Origin: Minisyncoccota bacterium
GTDB lineage: Bacteria; Patescibacteriota; Minisyncoccia; Phycocordibacterales; DATDWN01
Direction: 5' to 3'
Assembly: GCA_036517395.1 (NCBI GenBank)
Contig: DATDWN010000013.1
Coordinates: 2,191 to 66,190, forward strand
Length of the DNA stretch: 64,000 nt
A program made the translations under genes and the position numbers. Under the pieces are notes generated by a model. The model did not search any database and had not been told where the DNA came from. It saw only the letters and a list, made by a program, of their open reading frames with translations. This document shows, in pieces, positions 1 through 5,792 of this stretch (position 1 is the stretch's first letter; each line of letters begins with the position of its first letter).

Positions 1-1
1 T

Positions 2-736
2 GATGCCACAAAAGCAAGTCTGGATTCACTCAATCTAGGTTCGTACGTACTTACTCCATCAGGAAATTTAAATTATATTTTGAAAACTCGAGACATAACT
101 CCGGCCGAGAAAACCACTATTTTGGGGGCTCTTTCAATGGATCCGGCAAATCTCGCCAAGGAAGAACAGTTCAACACTCTCGGACCTGTTGTCGGAACAC
201 AGCTCAAAAATAAAGCTCTTCTGGCCATCGCTATAGTTATCATCTGCATCGTGCTTTTTATAACCTTTGCTTTTCGCAAAGTATCTACACCTGTGGCTTC
301 TTGGAAATATGGTCTGGCCACAATCATCGCTTTGGCTCATGACGTCATAATTCCAACCGGAGTTTTCGTCACTTGGAGTCATTTTTATGGAGGTCAGATT
401 GATCTGCTTTTCGTCACCGCCCTTCTTGCCATACTCGGTTACTCTGTTCACGATACTATCGTCGTTTTCGATAGAGTGCGCGAGAACTTACGAGTCGATT
501 CGAAAGGCAAAGAAACATTTTCTGAAACAGTAGGCAAGTCAGTTACCCAGACCTTCGGCCGTTCAATAAACACATCCTTGACCATCTTCCTCGCCCTTGC
601 CGCTTTGTATTTCATCGGCGGAGAATCCACCCGCGACTTTGCCTTCGTTCTCCTCGTTGGTGTTATTGTTGGAACATACTCATCAATCTTCGTCGCCTCA
701 CCGCTTCTTGTTACTCTTGAAAAATTACAGAAGTAA
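2..736 (+). CDS. secF: Protein-export membrane protein SecF, C-terminal part; the gene starts upstream of the window
   Basis: The open frame has no stop from nt 2. The translation (…TILGALSMDPANLAKEEQF…DTIVVFDRVRENL…) is typical of the SecD/SecF C-terminal domain with TM helices. Confidence 0.75.
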   Translation, partial: DATKASLDSLNLGSYVLTPSGNLNYILKTRDITPAEKTTILGALSMDPANLAKEEQFNTLGPVVGTQLKNKALLAIAIVIICIVLFITFAFRKVSTPVASWKYGLATIIALAHDVIIPTGVFVTWSHFYGGQIDLLFVTALLAILGYSVHDTIVVFDRVRENLRVDSKGKETFSETVGKSVTQTFGRSINTSLTIFLALAALYFIGGESTRDFAFVLLVGVIVGTYSSIFVASPLLVTLEKLQK

Positions 737-782
737 ACTTCCAAATTTGGCCATTTCTCATGTTGGATTTTATCTAAATTGT

Positions 783-811
783 GAAAGTTTTTGAATTCAC
801 TTGACACTATA
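783..811 (+). promoter_or_regulatory. Sigma70-like promoter (TTGACA-17/18-TATAGT)
   Basis: ttgacactatatagggtattgtgctatagt is read directly; it sits downstream of the secF stop codon. Confidence 0.3.
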
Positions 812-943
812 TAGGGTATTGTGCTATAGTTAGAAACGGGACAGCATCCTCTGAGGGAACGGCGACGAACAGTAACAAACCCCGCCCGGGTGGGCCAAGA
901 GGCTCACCACCGCGGCGGGTTTTCTTGTTGTAAAAATTTCTAC

Positions 944-974
944 TATCACTTGGCGGCTTAGCCGCCAAGTGATA
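944..974. repeat. REP-like perfect palindrome (14-bp stem, loop TTA) upstream of the RAYT gene
   Basis: tatcacttggcggcTTAgccgccaagtgata; the same arm recurs at 1415-1438 and a variant at 1640-1676. Confidence 0.7.
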
Positions 975-984
975 TGATTTAGGT

Positions 985-1617
985 ATGAGAAAGATAGAAT
1001 TTGGGATTGATGAAGTTTATCATGTCTTTAACCGAGGAGTCGATAAGAGAAAAATTTTTTCAAACAAAAAAGATCTCGATAGGTTTTTTGAAAGCATGAT
1101 CGCTTTTAATTCAATCAAACCTATTGGTAGTTTATTTGAACAAGGTTTTCAAAAGGAAGAAATCAAAAAACCACTTGTTGATATTATTTCTTATAACCTC
1201 TTACCTAACCATTTTCATCTTATTTTAAGAGAAATCAGGGAGGGAGGAATAAGTGAATTTCTTAAAAGACTTACCGGTGGCTATACTTGGTATTTTAACA
1301 ATAAAAATAAAAGATCCGGTTCGTTGTTTCAGGGACCTTTTAAAGCTAAACATATAGATTCAAATGAGTATCTACTGCATGTTAGTGTTTATGTAAATTT
1401 AAATGACAAAATACCACTTGGCGGCTTAGCCGCCAAGTCGGGAGATTTAACAAAATCTAGTTGGAAAGAATATTTAGGCGATAATAAGGAAAGTGTTTGT
1501 AAGAAAGATATTATTTTAGAGCAGTTTAAAAACATAGCAGATTATAAAGAATTTGCCCTATCATCTTTAGATGATATAAAGTTAAACAAAGAAGAGTATA
1601 AAGATTTGGAGGAATGA
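985..1617 (+). CDS. Y1 HUH tyrosine transposase, REP-associated (RAYT / IS200-like TnpA family)
   Basis: HUH motif HFHLIL and catalytic-Tyr region LLHVSVYVNLN resemble the RAYT motif HVDYIYINP. The N-terminal YHVFNRG…RKIF also fits. The gene is flanked by REP palindromes. Confidence 0.65.
   Translation: MRKIEFGIDEVYHVFNRGVDKRKIFSNKKDLDRFFESMIAFNSIKPIGSLFEQGFQKEEIKKPLVDIISYNLLPNHFHLILREIREGGISEFLKRLTGGYTWYFNNKNKRSGSLFQGPFKAKHIDSNEYLLHVSVYVNLNDKIPLGGLAAKSGDLTKSSWKEYLGDNKESVCKKDIILEQFKNIADYKEFALSSLDDIKLNKEEYKDLEE
1415..1438. repeat. REP palindrome copy inside the RAYT coding sequence, in frame (encodes PLGGLAAKS)
   Basis: cacttggcggcttagccgccaagt is identical to the arm of the 944-974 palindrome. 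Confidence 0.6.
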
Positions 1618-1639
1618 GCAGTTCACCAGACCACTCACA

Positions 1640-1676
1640 GTGACTCACTTAGCGGTGGCACCGCCAAGTGAGTCAC
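1640..1676. repeat. REP-like palindrome downstream of the RAYT gene (variant sequence)
   Basis: gtgactcacttagcggtg/gcaccgccaagtgagtcac; the arms are complementary with one mismatch. Confidence 0.6.
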
Positions 1677-1683
1677 ATAGTAG

Positions 1684-1751
1684 GAACCTACTCATTAATC
1701 TTCGTCGCTTCACCGCTTTTAGTAACACTTGAAAAATTGCAGAAGAAAGGC
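1684..1751 (+). repeat. Diverged direct duplicate of the last ~66 nt of secF (compare 670-739)
   Basis: ggaacctactcattaatcttcgtcgcttcaccgcttttagtaacacttgaaaaattgcagaag matches ggaacatactcatcaatcttcgtcgcctcaccgcttcttgttactcttgaaaaattacagaag. The differences are mostly synonymous. Confidence 0.7.
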
Positions 1752-1790
1752 TAAACTCTCATTTAGAGTATTGTTCAGAAGAGGTGACTC

Positions 1791-1982
1791 ATGGTGATTC
1801 GATCGGACTCCGCCATTGACGAGATCGAAAAGGTCTTTAGATGGCGAATAGACGCACAAGAGCGCTGGTCAAGAGACGGTTGGGGTCCTCGAGGACAGCA
1901 CGAAATACAGAGGGAGCTGGACGCGGAAGGGTTCGAGAGGATTCGGAAGCTCCTTCGCCAGCACGGATCCCTACGGGTCTGA
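1791..1982 (+). CDS. Hypothetical 63-aa protein inside a GC-rich island (~1790-2035)
   Basis: The ORF lies in a local ~60% GC segment. A hairpin plus T-run (cgacgcaagg…ccctgcgtcggtgggtttttt) follows it. Coding status is uncertain. Confidence 0.25.
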   Translation: MVIRSDSAIDEIEKVFRWRIDAQERWSRDGWGPRGQHEIQRELDAEGFERIRKLLRQHGSLRV

Positions 1983-2047
1983 TGACCCCTCGACGCAAGG
2001 CCAAGGAACCCTGCGTCGGTGGGTTTTTTGGTATAAAATTGTTGCTT

Positions 2048-2076
2048 GACTTGCATTTGAAAATGACTATACTGTA
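2048..2076 (+). promoter_or_regulatory. Sigma70-like promoter (TTGACT-17-TATACT) upstream of the rRNA leader
   Basis: ttgacttgcatttgaaaatgactatact. Confidence 0.4.
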
Positions 2077-2514: not shown

Positions 2515-2756
2515 CCGTCGAAGCAAAGAATGCGAATAGCATTCTTTATTTTGTTCCGTTCATTATAAGATTTGATCAATTTTTTATAAAGGGTCAGCAA
2601 AGCGAGTCTGAAAAATTTATTTTTCAGACGAGCGCGCGCCCCCTTTATATCAAAGATACCAATCTTTGATAAGAGTTTGATCCTAGCTCAGGATGAACGC
2701 TGGCGGTGTGGATAAGGCATGCAAGTCAAGGGGGCGCATCACATTGAGTACAATGT

Positions 2757-2880
2757 GAATTTAAAATTTTTACTTTAAAATTTAAAAATAATGACTAAAT
2801 GTTTTAATTTTAAAAATTAATTCATTAAAAATTAAGTTTAAATTCTAAATTCTAAATTAAAAATTCGCATCGCGCGCAGC
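2757..2880 (+). other. AT-rich expansion segment / intervening sequence at the tip of 16S helix 6 (V1)
   Basis: It is bracketed by the complementary ggcgcatcac … gtgatgcgtcacc. The content is low-complexity (aaatt/taaaa). Confidence 0.5.
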
Positions 2881-3274
2881 GTGATGCGTCACCGGCGAAC
2901 GAGGTAGTAACACGTGGGTACATACCCTGAAGTCAGGAATAACCAGTCGAAAGATTGGATAATACTTGATGTGATCTTCGGATCAAAGTCGCAAGACGCT
3001 TTAGGAATGGCCTGCGAAGTATCAGCTAGTTGGTAGTGTAATGGACTACCAAGGCTATGACGCTTAGGGGGAGTGAGAGCTTGGCCCCCACCGATGAGAC
3101 TGAGACACGGCTCATACACCTACGGGTGGCCGCAGCCGAGAATATTCGACAATGGACGAAAGTCTGATCGAGCGACACCGCGTGATGGATGAAGACCCTA
3201 GGGTCGTAAACATCTTTTATGAGGGAGAAAGTTTATTGATAGTACCTCACGAATAAGGGGTTTCAAAACTCGTG

Positions 3275-4220
3275 AAATGTGGGTTAAGCACCCACTTCCA
3301 TTTGAAACTTAAAAATTCGTAATTACCGTGCGCGACTTAGGGCCGTGAGGTTCTAAGCAAATTCGGCTTATATGCTGGAAATCTGTAAAGACTGCGCCAA
3401 ACACTTTTAAAAAAAGTGCGAGGTCCTTGACAGACAATCAGCAGGGAAGTCGGTATAATTAAGTAGTGAGTTTAACAAACAGACAAAAGGAAATAATAGT
3501 AGGCACTTTGTTGGGTGACGGATACTTGGAACATGATGGTTTCAAGGCGAGTAGATTGCAGATAAAGCAATGTGATCGCAAAAAAGATTATGTTTTTTGG
3601 CTCTATAACGAGCTGAAAAATTTAGTCAGAACTCCACTCAAACAAAGGAAAGATAACCAGCAATGGTATTTCAGCACCAGATCTCTAGTAGAGTTGGATT
3701 TTTTTAGAAGTCTTTTCTACGGATTTGGGAAAAAAGCTGTACCATCTATTATAAAAGAATTACCATTTTCTTCTCTTAGTCTTGCAGTCTGGTTTATGGA
3801 TGATGGGTCGTTGGATTATAGAGTAAAATACCATTACTCCTTTTCCTTCAGCACTGATTCATTCAATGAGCCAGATGTAAAACTTTTGACAGAATTATTA
3901 TTTGAAAAGTTTGATATAAAATCAAACATTCAGATGGTGGTTTCTCGAGGAAAGAAATATGTAAGACTGTATGTCGGTAAAGACGGAAGAGATAATTTTC
4001 TCTCTGTCGTAAGGCCTCATATTTTGTCCTGTTTTGATTACAAACTACCTCCGATTATAATTGACCCCTCAGAGACTGATCTTGAGAAAGTGAAGACTTT
4101 CAACACAGTGAGATAGAGAGATTTTTTTAAATCTTCTATAAGACGCCGAACCCCTTCCAAATGTAAATTTGTCAGGGTGATGATATAGTCCAATCCTCTT
4201 AGTGATAGGAGAAAAGAAGG
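3275..4220 (+). mobile_element. Group I intron in 16S rRNA (insertion near E. coli position ~515, just 5' of CCAGCAGCCGCGGTAATAC) carrying a homing-endonuclease ORF
   Basis: It interrupts a universally conserved 16S region. A P7/S-element-like gatgatatagtcc lies near the 3' end. The boundaries are approximate (±15 nt). Confidence 0.65.
3466..4116 (+). CDS. LAGLIDADG homing endonuclease (two-motif, single-chain) encoded within the group I intron
   Basis: The two LAGLIDADG motifs are GTLLGDGYLE and LAVWFMDDGS. Confidence 0.8.
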   Translation: MSLTNRQKEIIVGTLLGDGYLEHDGFKASRLQIKQCDRKKDYVFWLYNELKNLVRTPLKQRKDNQQWYFSTRSLVELDFFRSLFYGFGKKAVPSIIKELPFSSLSLAVWFMDDGSLDYRVKYHYSFSFSTDSFNEPDVKLLTELLFEKFDIKSNIQMVVSRGKKYVRLYVGKDGRDNFLSVVRPHILSCFDYKLPPIIIDPSETDLEKVKTFNTVR

Positions 4221-4857
4221 CCAGCAGAAGCGGTAATACGAGTACCCCGAGCGTTATCCGGAATTATTGGGCGTAAAGGGTGTGTAGGTGGTAGTGTTAG
4301 TCATTTGTTAAAACCCGAGGCTTAACCTCGGATCCGCGAATGATACGGCACAACTAGAGGATGGCAGGGATGTATGGAACTCATGGAGTAGGGGTGAAAT
4401 CCGTTGATATCATGGGGAACACCGAAAGCGAAGGCATTACATTGGGCCACTCCTGACACTGAAACACGAAAGCGTGGGTAGCGAATGGGATTAGATACCC
4501 CAGTAGTCCACGCCCTAAACGATGACAACTAGCTTTTCGGAGTATCGACCCTCTGAGAGGCGTAGCTAACGCGTTAAGTTGTCCGCCTGGGTAGTACGAC
4601 CGCAAGGTTAAAACTCAAAGGAATAGACGGGGACTTGCACAAGCAGAGGATTATGTGGTTTAATTCGATGGCAAACGAAGAACCTTACCAAGATTTGAAA
4701 CCCAACTGAAGACAGAGAGAAATTTTTGTTGTCCCACAAGGACAGTTGGGCAGGTGATTCATGGCCGTCGTCAGTTCGTGATTTGAATTGTTCCCTTAAG
4801 TGGGGTAACGAACGCAACCCTCGTTGTCTGTTACACGTATCAGGCGAGACTGCCCAG

Positions 4858-4990
4858 CTTTTTGTCCGGTAGGACATAAAGCTGAATAAAGAATAACGAA
4901 TATTGAATAAAGAATGAATGCAGAATACAAACTGTATTAAATCATTATTCATAATTCACGATTCATTATTCTCTTTTTGTTCGCTAGCGA
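4858..4990 (+). other. AT-rich expansion segment in the 16S hairpin equivalent to E. coli ~1160-1175 (cccagcTTTTTGT…ACAAAAAgctggg)
   Basis: Conserved 16S sequence flanks it on both sides (gactgcccagc … gctgggaggaaggcg). It contains three copies of GAATAAAGAA. Confidence 0.45.
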
Positions 4991-5792
4991 ACAAAAAGCT
5001 GGGAGGAAGGCGAGGATGACGCCAGGTCAGCATGTCCCTTTGATATCTTGGGCTACACACATAATACAATGGCGACTACAACGCGTTGCGACGCCGTAAG
5101 GCTGAGCCAATCGTAATAAAAGTCGCCCCAGTTCAGATTGGGGGCTGAAACTCGACCCCATGAAGTTGGATTTGCTAGTAATCGCGGGTCAGCTATACCG
5201 CGGTGAATACGTTCTCAAGTCTTGTACTCACCGCCCGTCAACTCAGGGGAGTTGGGAGTACCCGAAGTCCTGCATATGCAGGCCCACGGTAAACTCAATG
5301 ACAAAGAGTAAGTCGTAACAAGGCACGGCTAGGGGAACCTGGTCGTGGAATAATTCAATTTGAAATACTTTTCGCTTTGCGAAAGGAAAGTCATATCAAT
5401 CGCAAGAAAGATATGAATGTGTGTCGATTCCAGCCCCAGTTCTGAAACTAAATCTATAATGTCACGGAGTTTATAGTAGGTATAAACTTTGATAACAAAA
5501 ATAATATTGGTATCAGAACTGGAGCTGGAGGACAATGATTGTCTCGTCCTAAAACAATCTGACACTTGGAAAGACAGGAATGAACGGAACAAAATAAAGA
5601 ATGATATACCATCGTGTGGGACACGATGAAGTTGAAAGTTAAAAGTCCATAAAGTTTGTAAAGTAAATGTAACCACAAAAATACCGCTATAATAGGCGGT
5701 ATTTTTGATGCCGAAGTCCTGTACTGAGCTTTGCTCTGGTGCGGGATTGACTTTATACTGGGAAGTGTTATATAATAATAGACGGAGGAAAC

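Follow-up and report, generated by a model that had tools for sequence, protein, structure and literature searches.

A relic secF 3ʹ end beside a hairpin-bearing Y1/HUH gene in a Minisyncoccota bacterium is probably a scar of recombination between lineages

The window analyzed here, a stretch of 64,000 nucleotides (nt) of contig DATDWN010000013.1 (positions 2,191 to 66,190 of the forward strand), comes from a Minisyncoccota bacterium, a tiny groundwater member of the candidate phyla radiation (CPR). Near its left end lies a gene for a Y1/HUH transposase-like protein with hairpins before, inside and after it, and this unit sits between secF and the ribosomal RNA (rRNA) operon. Directly behind the last hairpin, the DNA continues with a second, diverged copy of the secF 3ʹ end, whose origin is the main subject of this study. 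The window opens inside secF, recognized by its Pfam SecD_SecF_C match (E 1.5e-53), and the full-length gene was read on contig L002 of the same species. A first-pass annotation of the sequence had described the locus as a unit of repetitive extragenic palindromes (REPs) and a REP-associated tyrosine transposase (RAYT) inserted in the 3ʹ end of secF. In fact, secF is intact and the unit lies 3ʹ of it, within a spacer that varies among relatives. The features of the locus, including the two secF ends (tails A and B), the hairpins (L, internal and Rʹ) and the terminators (T1 and T2), are listed in Table 1.

Table 1. Features between secF and the rRNA operon, in window coordinates
Feature	Position	Strand	Remarks
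secF, 3ʹ two-thirds	1–736	+	residues ~63–306 of the 306-amino-acid (aa) protein; intact; TAA stop at 734–736
Apparent recombination break in secF	491–496	+	codons 226/227, between CGA and GTC; placed from protein data alone
Tail A	665–742	+	functional last 23 secF codons, stop and TAAACT
Promoter in spacer A (predicted)	801–830	+	near-consensus, sigma-70 type, TTGACA-18-TATAGT; 11/12 matches, with TG
Terminator T1	880–930	+	long GC stem CCCGCC...GGCGGG, then TTTTCTTGTTG; folds
Hairpin L	944–974		perfect 15+15 palindrome; core CA-CTTGGCGG-CTTAG-CCGCCAAG-TG
Y1/HUH transposase-like gene, RAYT-like	985–1617	+	210 aa; Pfam Y1_Tnp, 26.1 bits against a cut-off of 23
Internal hairpin	1412–1440		in frame, encodes PLGGLAAKS just after the catalytic-Tyr helix
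Spacer and hairpin Rʹ	1618–1676		unique spacer, then Rʹ at 1640–1676: 37-nt palindrome, 18+18, one mismatch
Tail B	1677–1757	+	apparent relic, last 25 codons of another secF allele (IVGTYSLIFVASPLLVTLEKLQKKG, then stop) and TAAACT
Spacer B	1758–1985	+	contains the orphan open reading frame (ORF) ORF63 (1791–1982)
Terminator T2	1986–2030	+	terminator-like; diverged second T1 copy, just 5ʹ of the rRNA promoter as in L098
rRNA operon promoter	2046–2073	+	TTGACT-16-TATACT; conserved right flank of the variable spacer

The last 72 nt of secF (665–736) recur without gaps at 1677–1748 with 85% identity, and past a 6-nt indel the repeat resumes through TAAACT (to 742 and 1757). The repeat had been reported earlier as 66 nt (1684–1751 versus 670–739), and our comparison both confirms and widens it. 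When the two tails were compared codon by codon, 10 of the 69 coding bases differed across 23 codons, and nine of these substitutions were synonymous, falling in eight codons (eight third-position changes and one first-position change within CTT>TTA). The sole amino-acid change from tail A to tail B is TCA>TTA, Ser>Leu, and the stop codon of tail A is replaced in tail B by AAA GGC TAA, giving an ending in ...KKG and stop; about nine mostly synonymous changes and a final KG had been noted before, in good agreement with this count. Nei–Gojobori estimates of the synonymous (dS) and nonsynonymous (dN) rates were 0.69 and 0.04, respectively, a dN/dS of 0.06. When 10 substitutions were placed at random, at most one amino-acid change was obtained in 2 of 100,000 placements (p ~2e-5). 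The dN/dS comparison that the first-pass annotation had proposed thus upholds its claim: the tails share one frame, and the synonymous bias holds codon by codon. Because this bias is strong, tail B must once have belonged to a working secF.

The C-terminus of SecF is nearly invariant across 120 homologues (GTYSSIFVASPLLVTLEK...), with GTYSSIFVASP conserved and its SS pair invariant. The residues of tail A are canonical for SecF. Endings in ...KKG, as in tail B, are present in real SecF proteins, and the Ser>Leu change of tail B removes one of the two Ser residues that are invariant in the 120 proteins. In the frame of tail B, stop codons lie upstream at 1641–1643 and 1650–1652. Given the lost Ser and these stops, tail B reads as the relic of a once-functional secF allele. 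Tails A and B agree in 59 of 69 bases, and each agrees with the tails of other species in 57–58 of 69, suggesting that the two alleles split about as long ago as the species of the clade. Nucleotide identity could not place either tail with a nearest relative, both scoring 57–58 of 69 against the best.

Ten independent contigs, which derive from several samples and assemblers, share the structure of secF tail, Y1 gene and tail B at 99.85–100% identity, so the duplicate is not an assembly artefact. The relic was present in every contig read of the species that extends beyond the Y1 gene and is therefore fixed there, and in all contigs read with an identical SecF (7/7), the Y1 gene comes next after secF. 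When 86 family loci were searched for direct repeats around the Y1 gene, a flanking gene-tail repeat was seen in the window species only (0/85 others), indicating a single event; the element does not generally duplicate gene tails. When the secF 3ʹ regions of related genomes were compared, as had been suggested, no second secF tail was found in the loci L091, L092, L096, L098, L099 and L100, and the cargo of the spacer varied. Coding-type divergence is not expected of a target-site duplication, and the other 85 loci have no such repeat; both points weigh against simple transposition, which the first-pass annotation had also considered less probable.

Tail B starts at 1677, the base directly 3ʹ of the right palindrome, so that Rʹ abuts codon 283 of the secF fragment at 1676/1677, a joint that no relative has. 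Folded as single-stranded DNA, hairpins L, internal and Rʹ gave -16.6, -13.4 and -16.9 kcal/mol, with z-scores of -9.6, -6.1 and -7.0 against shuffled sequences, respectively. The inner stem of Rʹ is CGGTG.G.CACCG, versus CGGCT.T.AGCCG in L and the internal copy, and homology to the closest Y1 loci stops at about 1615–1623, around the stop codon, with none of them covering Rʹ. Since the homology ends near the stop codon and the inner stem differs, the right end of the unit appears to have been remodelled, and the right palindrome, previously listed as one of the REP-like palindromes flanking the gene, is non-cognate together with its spacer. Two further ideas about this end were dropped. A likeness between the spacer before Rʹ and the region after the right hairpin of L096 was not above shuffles, and an origin of Rʹ as an in-frame hairpin insertion in the secF of a donor was ruled out by the two stops upstream of tail B.

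The duplication is not limited to the secF tail, as had been supposed; the duplicated unit also spans a spacer and a terminator. T1 is conserved 3ʹ of secF or beside the Y1 unit in L098, L099, L091, L092 and L096, and the similarity of T2 to the terminator of L092 was above that of all 200 shuffles. The rRNA operon promoter is 93–100% conserved in L096, L092 and L098, and the 16S gene begins near 2673. The GC content of spacer B is 53%, versus 40% for the genome. No similarity was detectable between spacers A and B, and Rfam searches (gathering and E-value thresholds) returned nothing in either spacer or in the terminators. A module of secF tail, spacer and terminator is thus present on both sides of the Y1 gene. 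ORF63 had no homologue but itself among 5.8 billion proteins; it lies in a stretch of 53–58% GC and may be non-coding.

The organization of the region between secF and the rRNA operon varies among related lineages. In L098, secF is followed by a small GC-rich ORF, the terminator and directly the rRNA promoter, while L099 has secF, a small ORF, the terminator, a RelB/YafQ pair and the rRNA promoter; the Y1 gene is not present at this spacer in L098, L099 or L100. In L091, L092 and L096, secF is followed by an unrelated ORF (113, 114 or 249 aa), hairpin L, the Y1 gene with an internal hairpin, and hairpin R. Among the four lineages with the Y1 gene downstream of secF, the rRNA leader comes directly after the Y1 unit in the window and in L096. 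As the relatives carry different cargo, with or without a Y1 unit, the secF–rRNA spacer is variable, and it appears to be recombination-prone, in this Parcubacteria/Paceibacteria-like group.

The SecF protein itself also bears signs of exchange. Over residues 10–226, the catalogue protein P0122 is identical to the window SecF (0 mismatches in 217), and the last 80 residues then show 14 mismatches and indels, the portion beyond residue 226 being 81% identical. This switch from identity to divergence places the crossover at about base 493/494. P0122 shares its sample, SRR3989344, with a Y1 protein that is 95% identical. The N-terminal part of the window SecF is closest to L098 (91%, versus 86% for the C-terminal part), and the C-terminal part is closest to L091 (94%, versus 75% for the N-terminal part). 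The window secF therefore looks mosaic, with a break near base 493, and homologous exchange with relatives inside secF has independent support. The evidence for this crossover in a conserved flank is at the protein level only, and the crossover may have been an event separate from that of tail B.

The anatomy of the locus, the coding-type divergence of its tails, a duplicate that is unique to the species and fixed in it, the second terminator, the mosaic SecF and a right hairpin that is non-cognate lead us to infer that the relic is probably a scar of recombination between lineages, in which one end was anchored by homology and the other was joined illegitimately at the foot of the hairpin. 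In the best reading, neither transposition nor plain homologous recombination made it. Acquisition with flanking DNA by homologous recombination from a relative had been proposed before; exchange within secF is supported by P0122 and the incongruent N- and C-terminal parts, but plain homologous recombination cannot make the junction between the hairpin and tail B, so that one illegitimate joint is needed. Tail B would form the left end of another, diverged allele of the module described above, located 3ʹ of the remodelled hairpin Rʹ and 5ʹ of the rRNA promoter. DNA of a related lineage would have been integrated by homology-facilitated illegitimate recombination, with one crossover in a conserved flank and the other end joined without homology at the hairpin foot.

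Two versions of this event, which differ in its direction, fit equally well. In version (a), the anchor would lie in secF near 493, the incoming DNA (494–1676) would have supplied a complete secF end and the Y1 unit, and the recipient's own last 24 secF codons would have been stranded as tail B. In version (b), the anchor would lie in the rRNA leader or the 16S gene, and the incoming DNA would comprise 1677 to about 2040 and beyond, its left end having happened to fall inside the secF of the donor. The mosaic SecF favors version (a), and codon usage, which mildly favors tail A as part of the secDF body, is as expected under version (b). A search for the donor lineage through ORF63 turned up ORF63 itself and nothing else, and no tail B lineage was found, so that either tail may be the donor's.

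Several points weigh against a recombination scar, or at least against parts of it. P0122 is a short-read catalogue protein without DNA on record and possibly an assembly chimera (a contig for it was sought, none is on record, and the sample accession alone was recovered), and its tail is not tail B. No lineage was found with an intact secF that carries tail B and spacer B. Codon usage weakly favors tail A as the native one, the fit to the secDF body being better than that of tail B by 1.9–2.8 nats. The joint also coincides exactly with the end of the 37-nt palindrome, which could mean strand transfer catalyzed by an enzyme. If the relic is nevertheless a recombination scar, it would document, as a dated record left by nature, an exchange of chromosomal DNA between ultra-small uncultured bacteria and relatives that are fairly distant, and the spacer beside the rRNA operon would be a hotspot for such exchange.

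The position of the joint raises the question of what the Y1 enzyme, or breakage of the hairpin, might have contributed to the end at 1676. In a proposal that we consider doubtful, the enzyme, which would be CPR-wide, would bind or nick the locus-specific hairpin at all three places in its gene (promoter, coding sequence and 3ʹ end), and would thereby regulate itself and keep the hairpins identical by conversion; a single-strand break at the right foot would prime the capture of foreign DNA, and the relic would be the product of protein-initiated recombination and no passive accident. It is unlikely that the enzyme moved an over-long element, cutting at a surrogate left site in the secF of the donor and at the foot of the right hairpin, so that the piece 665–1676 was pasted into the same target in the secF of the recipient and brought a replacement tail. 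Such a move would place the joint exactly where it is, at the 3ʹ foot of a palindrome, and the HUH motif of the Y1 protein is intact and its Tyr residues are conserved. IS200/IS605 elements use one short sequence both as their left cleavage site and as their insertion target, and with a site shared in this way, the repeat and the insert would be expected to start at the same point. However, none of the 85 other family loci has flanking gene fragments, nothing is conserved at the ends of the unit beyond the hairpins, and Rʹ is non-cognate to L. The Y1 gene is also single-copy and lies downstream of secF in four lineages, two of which (the window and L096) have the rRNA leader just after it, and the second terminator and the SecF break at codon 226 would be left unexplained.

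An origin within one genome was considered as well. Two tandem secF paralogues might once have flanked the Y1 gene and diverged under selection before the second was deleted down to its last 24 codons. Divergence with the same synonymous bias would then result with no foreign DNA involved, so the earlier claim that the duplicate evolved under coding constraint in another genome stands for the working secF and not necessarily for the other genome. We regard such a paralogue as improbable, as each of the roughly 30 related loci in which the motif search detected the tail motif showed it only once, the genomes are highly streamlined, and neither the non-cognate hairpin nor a deletion ending exactly at a hairpin foot would be explained.

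It is highly improbable that the tails are the attL and attR of a small island integrated site-specifically at an attachment (att) site overlapping the secF 3ʹ end. The arrangement does recall the att duplications of islands at tRNA- and tmRNA-type sites, in that a restored gene end on one side and a displaced copy on the other bracket inserted DNA, and the tails share identical runs of up to 11 nt. Unlike in such islands, the identity of the repeats is only 85%, the stretch between them encodes neither a tyrosine nor a serine recombinase (the Y1 protein gene is the sole gene there), the event is not recurrent among the 86 loci, and relatives have the Y1 unit at this locus without any repeat. 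Least credible of all is a live small gene containing tail B, for example a one-helix membrane peptide of 28 codons from a GTG (1668–1754), for although the frame is open over 1653–1754 and promoter-like hexamers lie nearby, the invariant Ser is lost, stops lie immediately upstream in frame, no ribosome-binding site is evident and no such ORF is conserved elsewhere.

The recombination scar, by comparison, is a known kind of event. Homology-facilitated illegitimate recombination during the uptake of foreign DNA was reportedly described by de Vries and Wackernagel in 2002. As in that process, the window has a conserved gene with protein-level signs of a crossover on one side, a novel joint without homology on the other, and a diverged, once-coding fragment left behind; unlike in that process, the event is reconstructed from a natural scar, and the joint coincides with a hairpin associated with a protein. 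The term is used in PMC8116780 and PMC6382021.

The Y1 gene may prove more useful than the scar. The databases contain 3,583 relatives of its protein, many of which carry the label Paceibacterota, Giovannonibacteria or Kaiserbacteria, and H76 and H78 of the HUH motif (H76-F-H78), Y129 and Y136 are invariant in 23 sequences. The Tyr motif reads YVNLN followed by D, N, H, Y or F, with the Asn invariant and Pro absent. An AlphaFold2 model of the protein had a predicted local distance difference test score (pLDDT) of 76, and its best PDB match was 4ER8 (E 1.3e-4), followed by the TnpA proteins of IS608 and ISDra2 (2A6M and 2XM3). Against the NCBIfam model NF047646 (REP_Tyr_transpos), the protein scored 21.5 bits, below the cut-off of 80. 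The dN/dS of the Y1 gene is 0.05–0.11, similar to that of secD and secF, and the family is under purifying selection. The gene is single-copy in the window, and its place downstream of secF is the same there as in L091, L092 and L096. In genome pairs with these three, the Y1 dS is about half that of secF and secD (for example 0.69 versus 1.82 with L096), which could reflect more recent exchange or AT-biased codons (GC content at third positions 0.25) that lower the apparent dS. Because of the latter, the low dS was not accepted as proof of horizontal transfer; some horizontal exchange of the gene alongside vertical inheritance is compatible with the data.

Some loci showed further peculiarities. 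Second Y1 genes lie within a few kb of the first in L093 (9867–10490), L122 (6521–6958) and L129 (4010–4612), and they are about 32–42% identical to the query Y1 protein, versus 54–75% for the main Y1 gene there. In L116, a 426-nt direct repeat (1428–1853 and 4520–4945) lies about 1 kb on either side of a family member; its 3ʹ half is identical, and the repeat apparently consists of paralogous gene fragments and does not adjoin the hairpins. A 6-nt GAGACA repeat around the L092 unit, a hint of a circular form including the terminator, was too short to weigh.

Hairpins accompany the Y1 gene throughout the family. In 84 loci, we found 216 hairpins with the fixed foot CTTGG...CCAAG, versus 0.002 per locus in shuffled sequences; they lie upstream of the gene in 69, inside it in 64 and after its stop codon in 66 of the 84 loci. 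The inner stems differ from locus to locus (69 different ones), and in 37 of the 56 loci having all three positions, all hairpins of the locus match each other exactly once orientation is taken into account. The copy inside the coding sequence of the window gene, previously assigned to 1415–1438 and here to 1412–1440, was confirmed to be in frame. All 79 internal hairpins of the family share one frame and lie either at codons 55–70 (before HUH) or at codons 140–170 (after Y136). Within the motif, the codons CTT, GGC/GGT, ACC, GCC and AAG are fixed against the gene's own codon bias; Lys is encoded by AAG in 17 of 18 cases in the motif versus 21% elsewhere in the same genes. This fixed codon choice points to the conserved peptide LGGxTAK being a DNA palindrome read in frame, not a protein motif, and annotators should be warned accordingly. 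The loop encoded by the internal hairpin has a pLDDT below 50 in the structural model, and the hairpin seems to occupy a permissive loop of the coding sequence.

The upstream hairpin coincides with the predicted promoter of the Y1 gene. Hairpin L spans the region from the -35 element (TTGGCG, 950–955) to the -10 element (TATGAT, 973–978, preceded by TG), with the -35 element in its 5ʹ arm and the TG of the extended -10 element in its 3ʹ foot. A TGn-TAnnnT box lies 6–7 nt 5ʹ of the start codon in 17 of the 19 loci inspected. Such a short distance suggests that the gene is leaderless, and it may be regulated by its own product.

Outside these fixed places, the hairpins are scarce. No further copy of the hairpin core pattern was found in the 64 kb of the window (about 0.02 matches expected by chance), and two solo copies were found in 168 kb of flanks across loci. 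The hairpins do not appear to form a dispersed REP population, so the label REP is a loose one. Of the REP/RAYT unit first proposed, the Y1/HUH gene flanked by hairpins, with 4ER8 as the nearest fold, therefore stands, and the dispersed REP population does not. Scanning viral contigs for the hairpin and for KKG-type secF tails returned two unrelated solo hairpins, neither of them accompanied by a Y1 gene, and none of the tails.

Partial duplications of one hairpin arm were observed beside full hairpins in L092 (5463–5500), L097 (1172–1205), L093 (5637–5675), L128 (4674–4715), L102 (about 4640–4676) and L110 (about 1510–1549). The one in L092 (for example CCGCCAAGTTAACCGCCAAG) is in frame and gives TAKLTAK. 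These arm duplications suggest slippage or repeated processing at the hairpins. In L097 (right hairpin at 1385), L092 and L124, one hairpin has a different inner stem while its flanks are conserved with a relative, and the hairpin centres seem to be replaceable.

Among known systems, the window unit resembles a REPtron without a dispersed repeat population. As with the E. coli RAYT protein TnpA_REP (PMC3333891, PMC3479197, PMC6006769), a single-copy Y1/HUH gene is flanked by its own hairpins, the hairpins co-vary with the gene in the family, and purifying selection is combined with a shared position downstream of secF in related lineages; 4ER8, the nearest fold, is itself the E. coli REP-associated transposase. 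Unlike in REPtrons, dispersed hairpins are lacking, the 5ʹ hairpin foot has no GT[AG]G guide (the foot is CA-CTTGG, and the 5ʹ flanks are not conserved), the threshold of the curated REP_Tyr_transpos model was missed, the Tyr motif is YVNLN(D) as opposed to the class-2 Y---NP (PMC6006769), and the hairpin 5ʹ of the gene also serves as the spacer of its promoter.

For TnpA_Y1 subclass 2.4, Quentin et al. 2018 (PMC6006769) reported REPs inserted in frame within tnpA_REP genes, and the in-frame hairpins reported here are a variant of this known phenomenon. In both, the hairpins lie in the transposase gene without breaking its frame, in predicted peripheral loops; the present family differs in its two fixed sites, in its foot CTTGG/CCAAG and in its CPR hosts. 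The motifs NHFH, FQ, YVNLN and SS look closer to those of subclass 2.1, a comparison made by eye and not with the models of that study, and no REPs have been reported for subclass 2.1 (PMC6006769). With IS200/IS605 elements (IS608, ISDra2), the unit shares a Y1 enzyme, hairpins near both ends, the Pfam Y1_Tnp domain and the fold matches 2A6M and 2XM3. It differs from them in the length of its protein (210 aa with a C-terminal extension, versus about 150 aa for TnpA), in having YVNLN and no Y---Q, in being single-copy with no near-identical copies and a secF-side position common to related lineages, and in having no tnpB.

The Y1 family comprises more than 3,500 database proteins. Its hairpins keep a fixed foot but have inner stems specific to the locus, and they occupy three or four set positions, also in frame within the coding sequence, where codon choice is overridden to keep the palindrome. 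The family thus offers a compact system for studying the function of domesticated HUH enzymes that have no repeat population to mobilize.

Some minor features were also observed around the locus. A candidate small RNA may be encoded at 801–935, where the promoter is followed by a gap of about 10 nt and a GC-rich stretch of about 95 nt ending in T1; it had no Rfam match and a fold z-score of only -1.5. The rRNA leader contains a long inverted repeat at 2104–2269, for which the Rfam matches to plant microRNA precursors were all sub-threshold. The leader blocks flanking this repeat are 127 nt apart in the window and 25 nt apart in L096, indicating a variable stem-loop or a small palindromic insertion. 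The 16S gene is split by an insertion (Rfam SSU matches at 2673–3293 and 4068–5360) that carries an ORF for a LAGLIDADG homing endonuclease (3466–4116). Contig L001 of the same species contains a further LAGLIDADG_3 ORF, and its downstream context is unlike that of L002. Finally, an AT-rich 69-nt repeat with GAAAATT-type units and 81% identity occurs both in the 16S region of the window (about 2798–2865) and in the secD–secF spacer (L001, 1954–2022).

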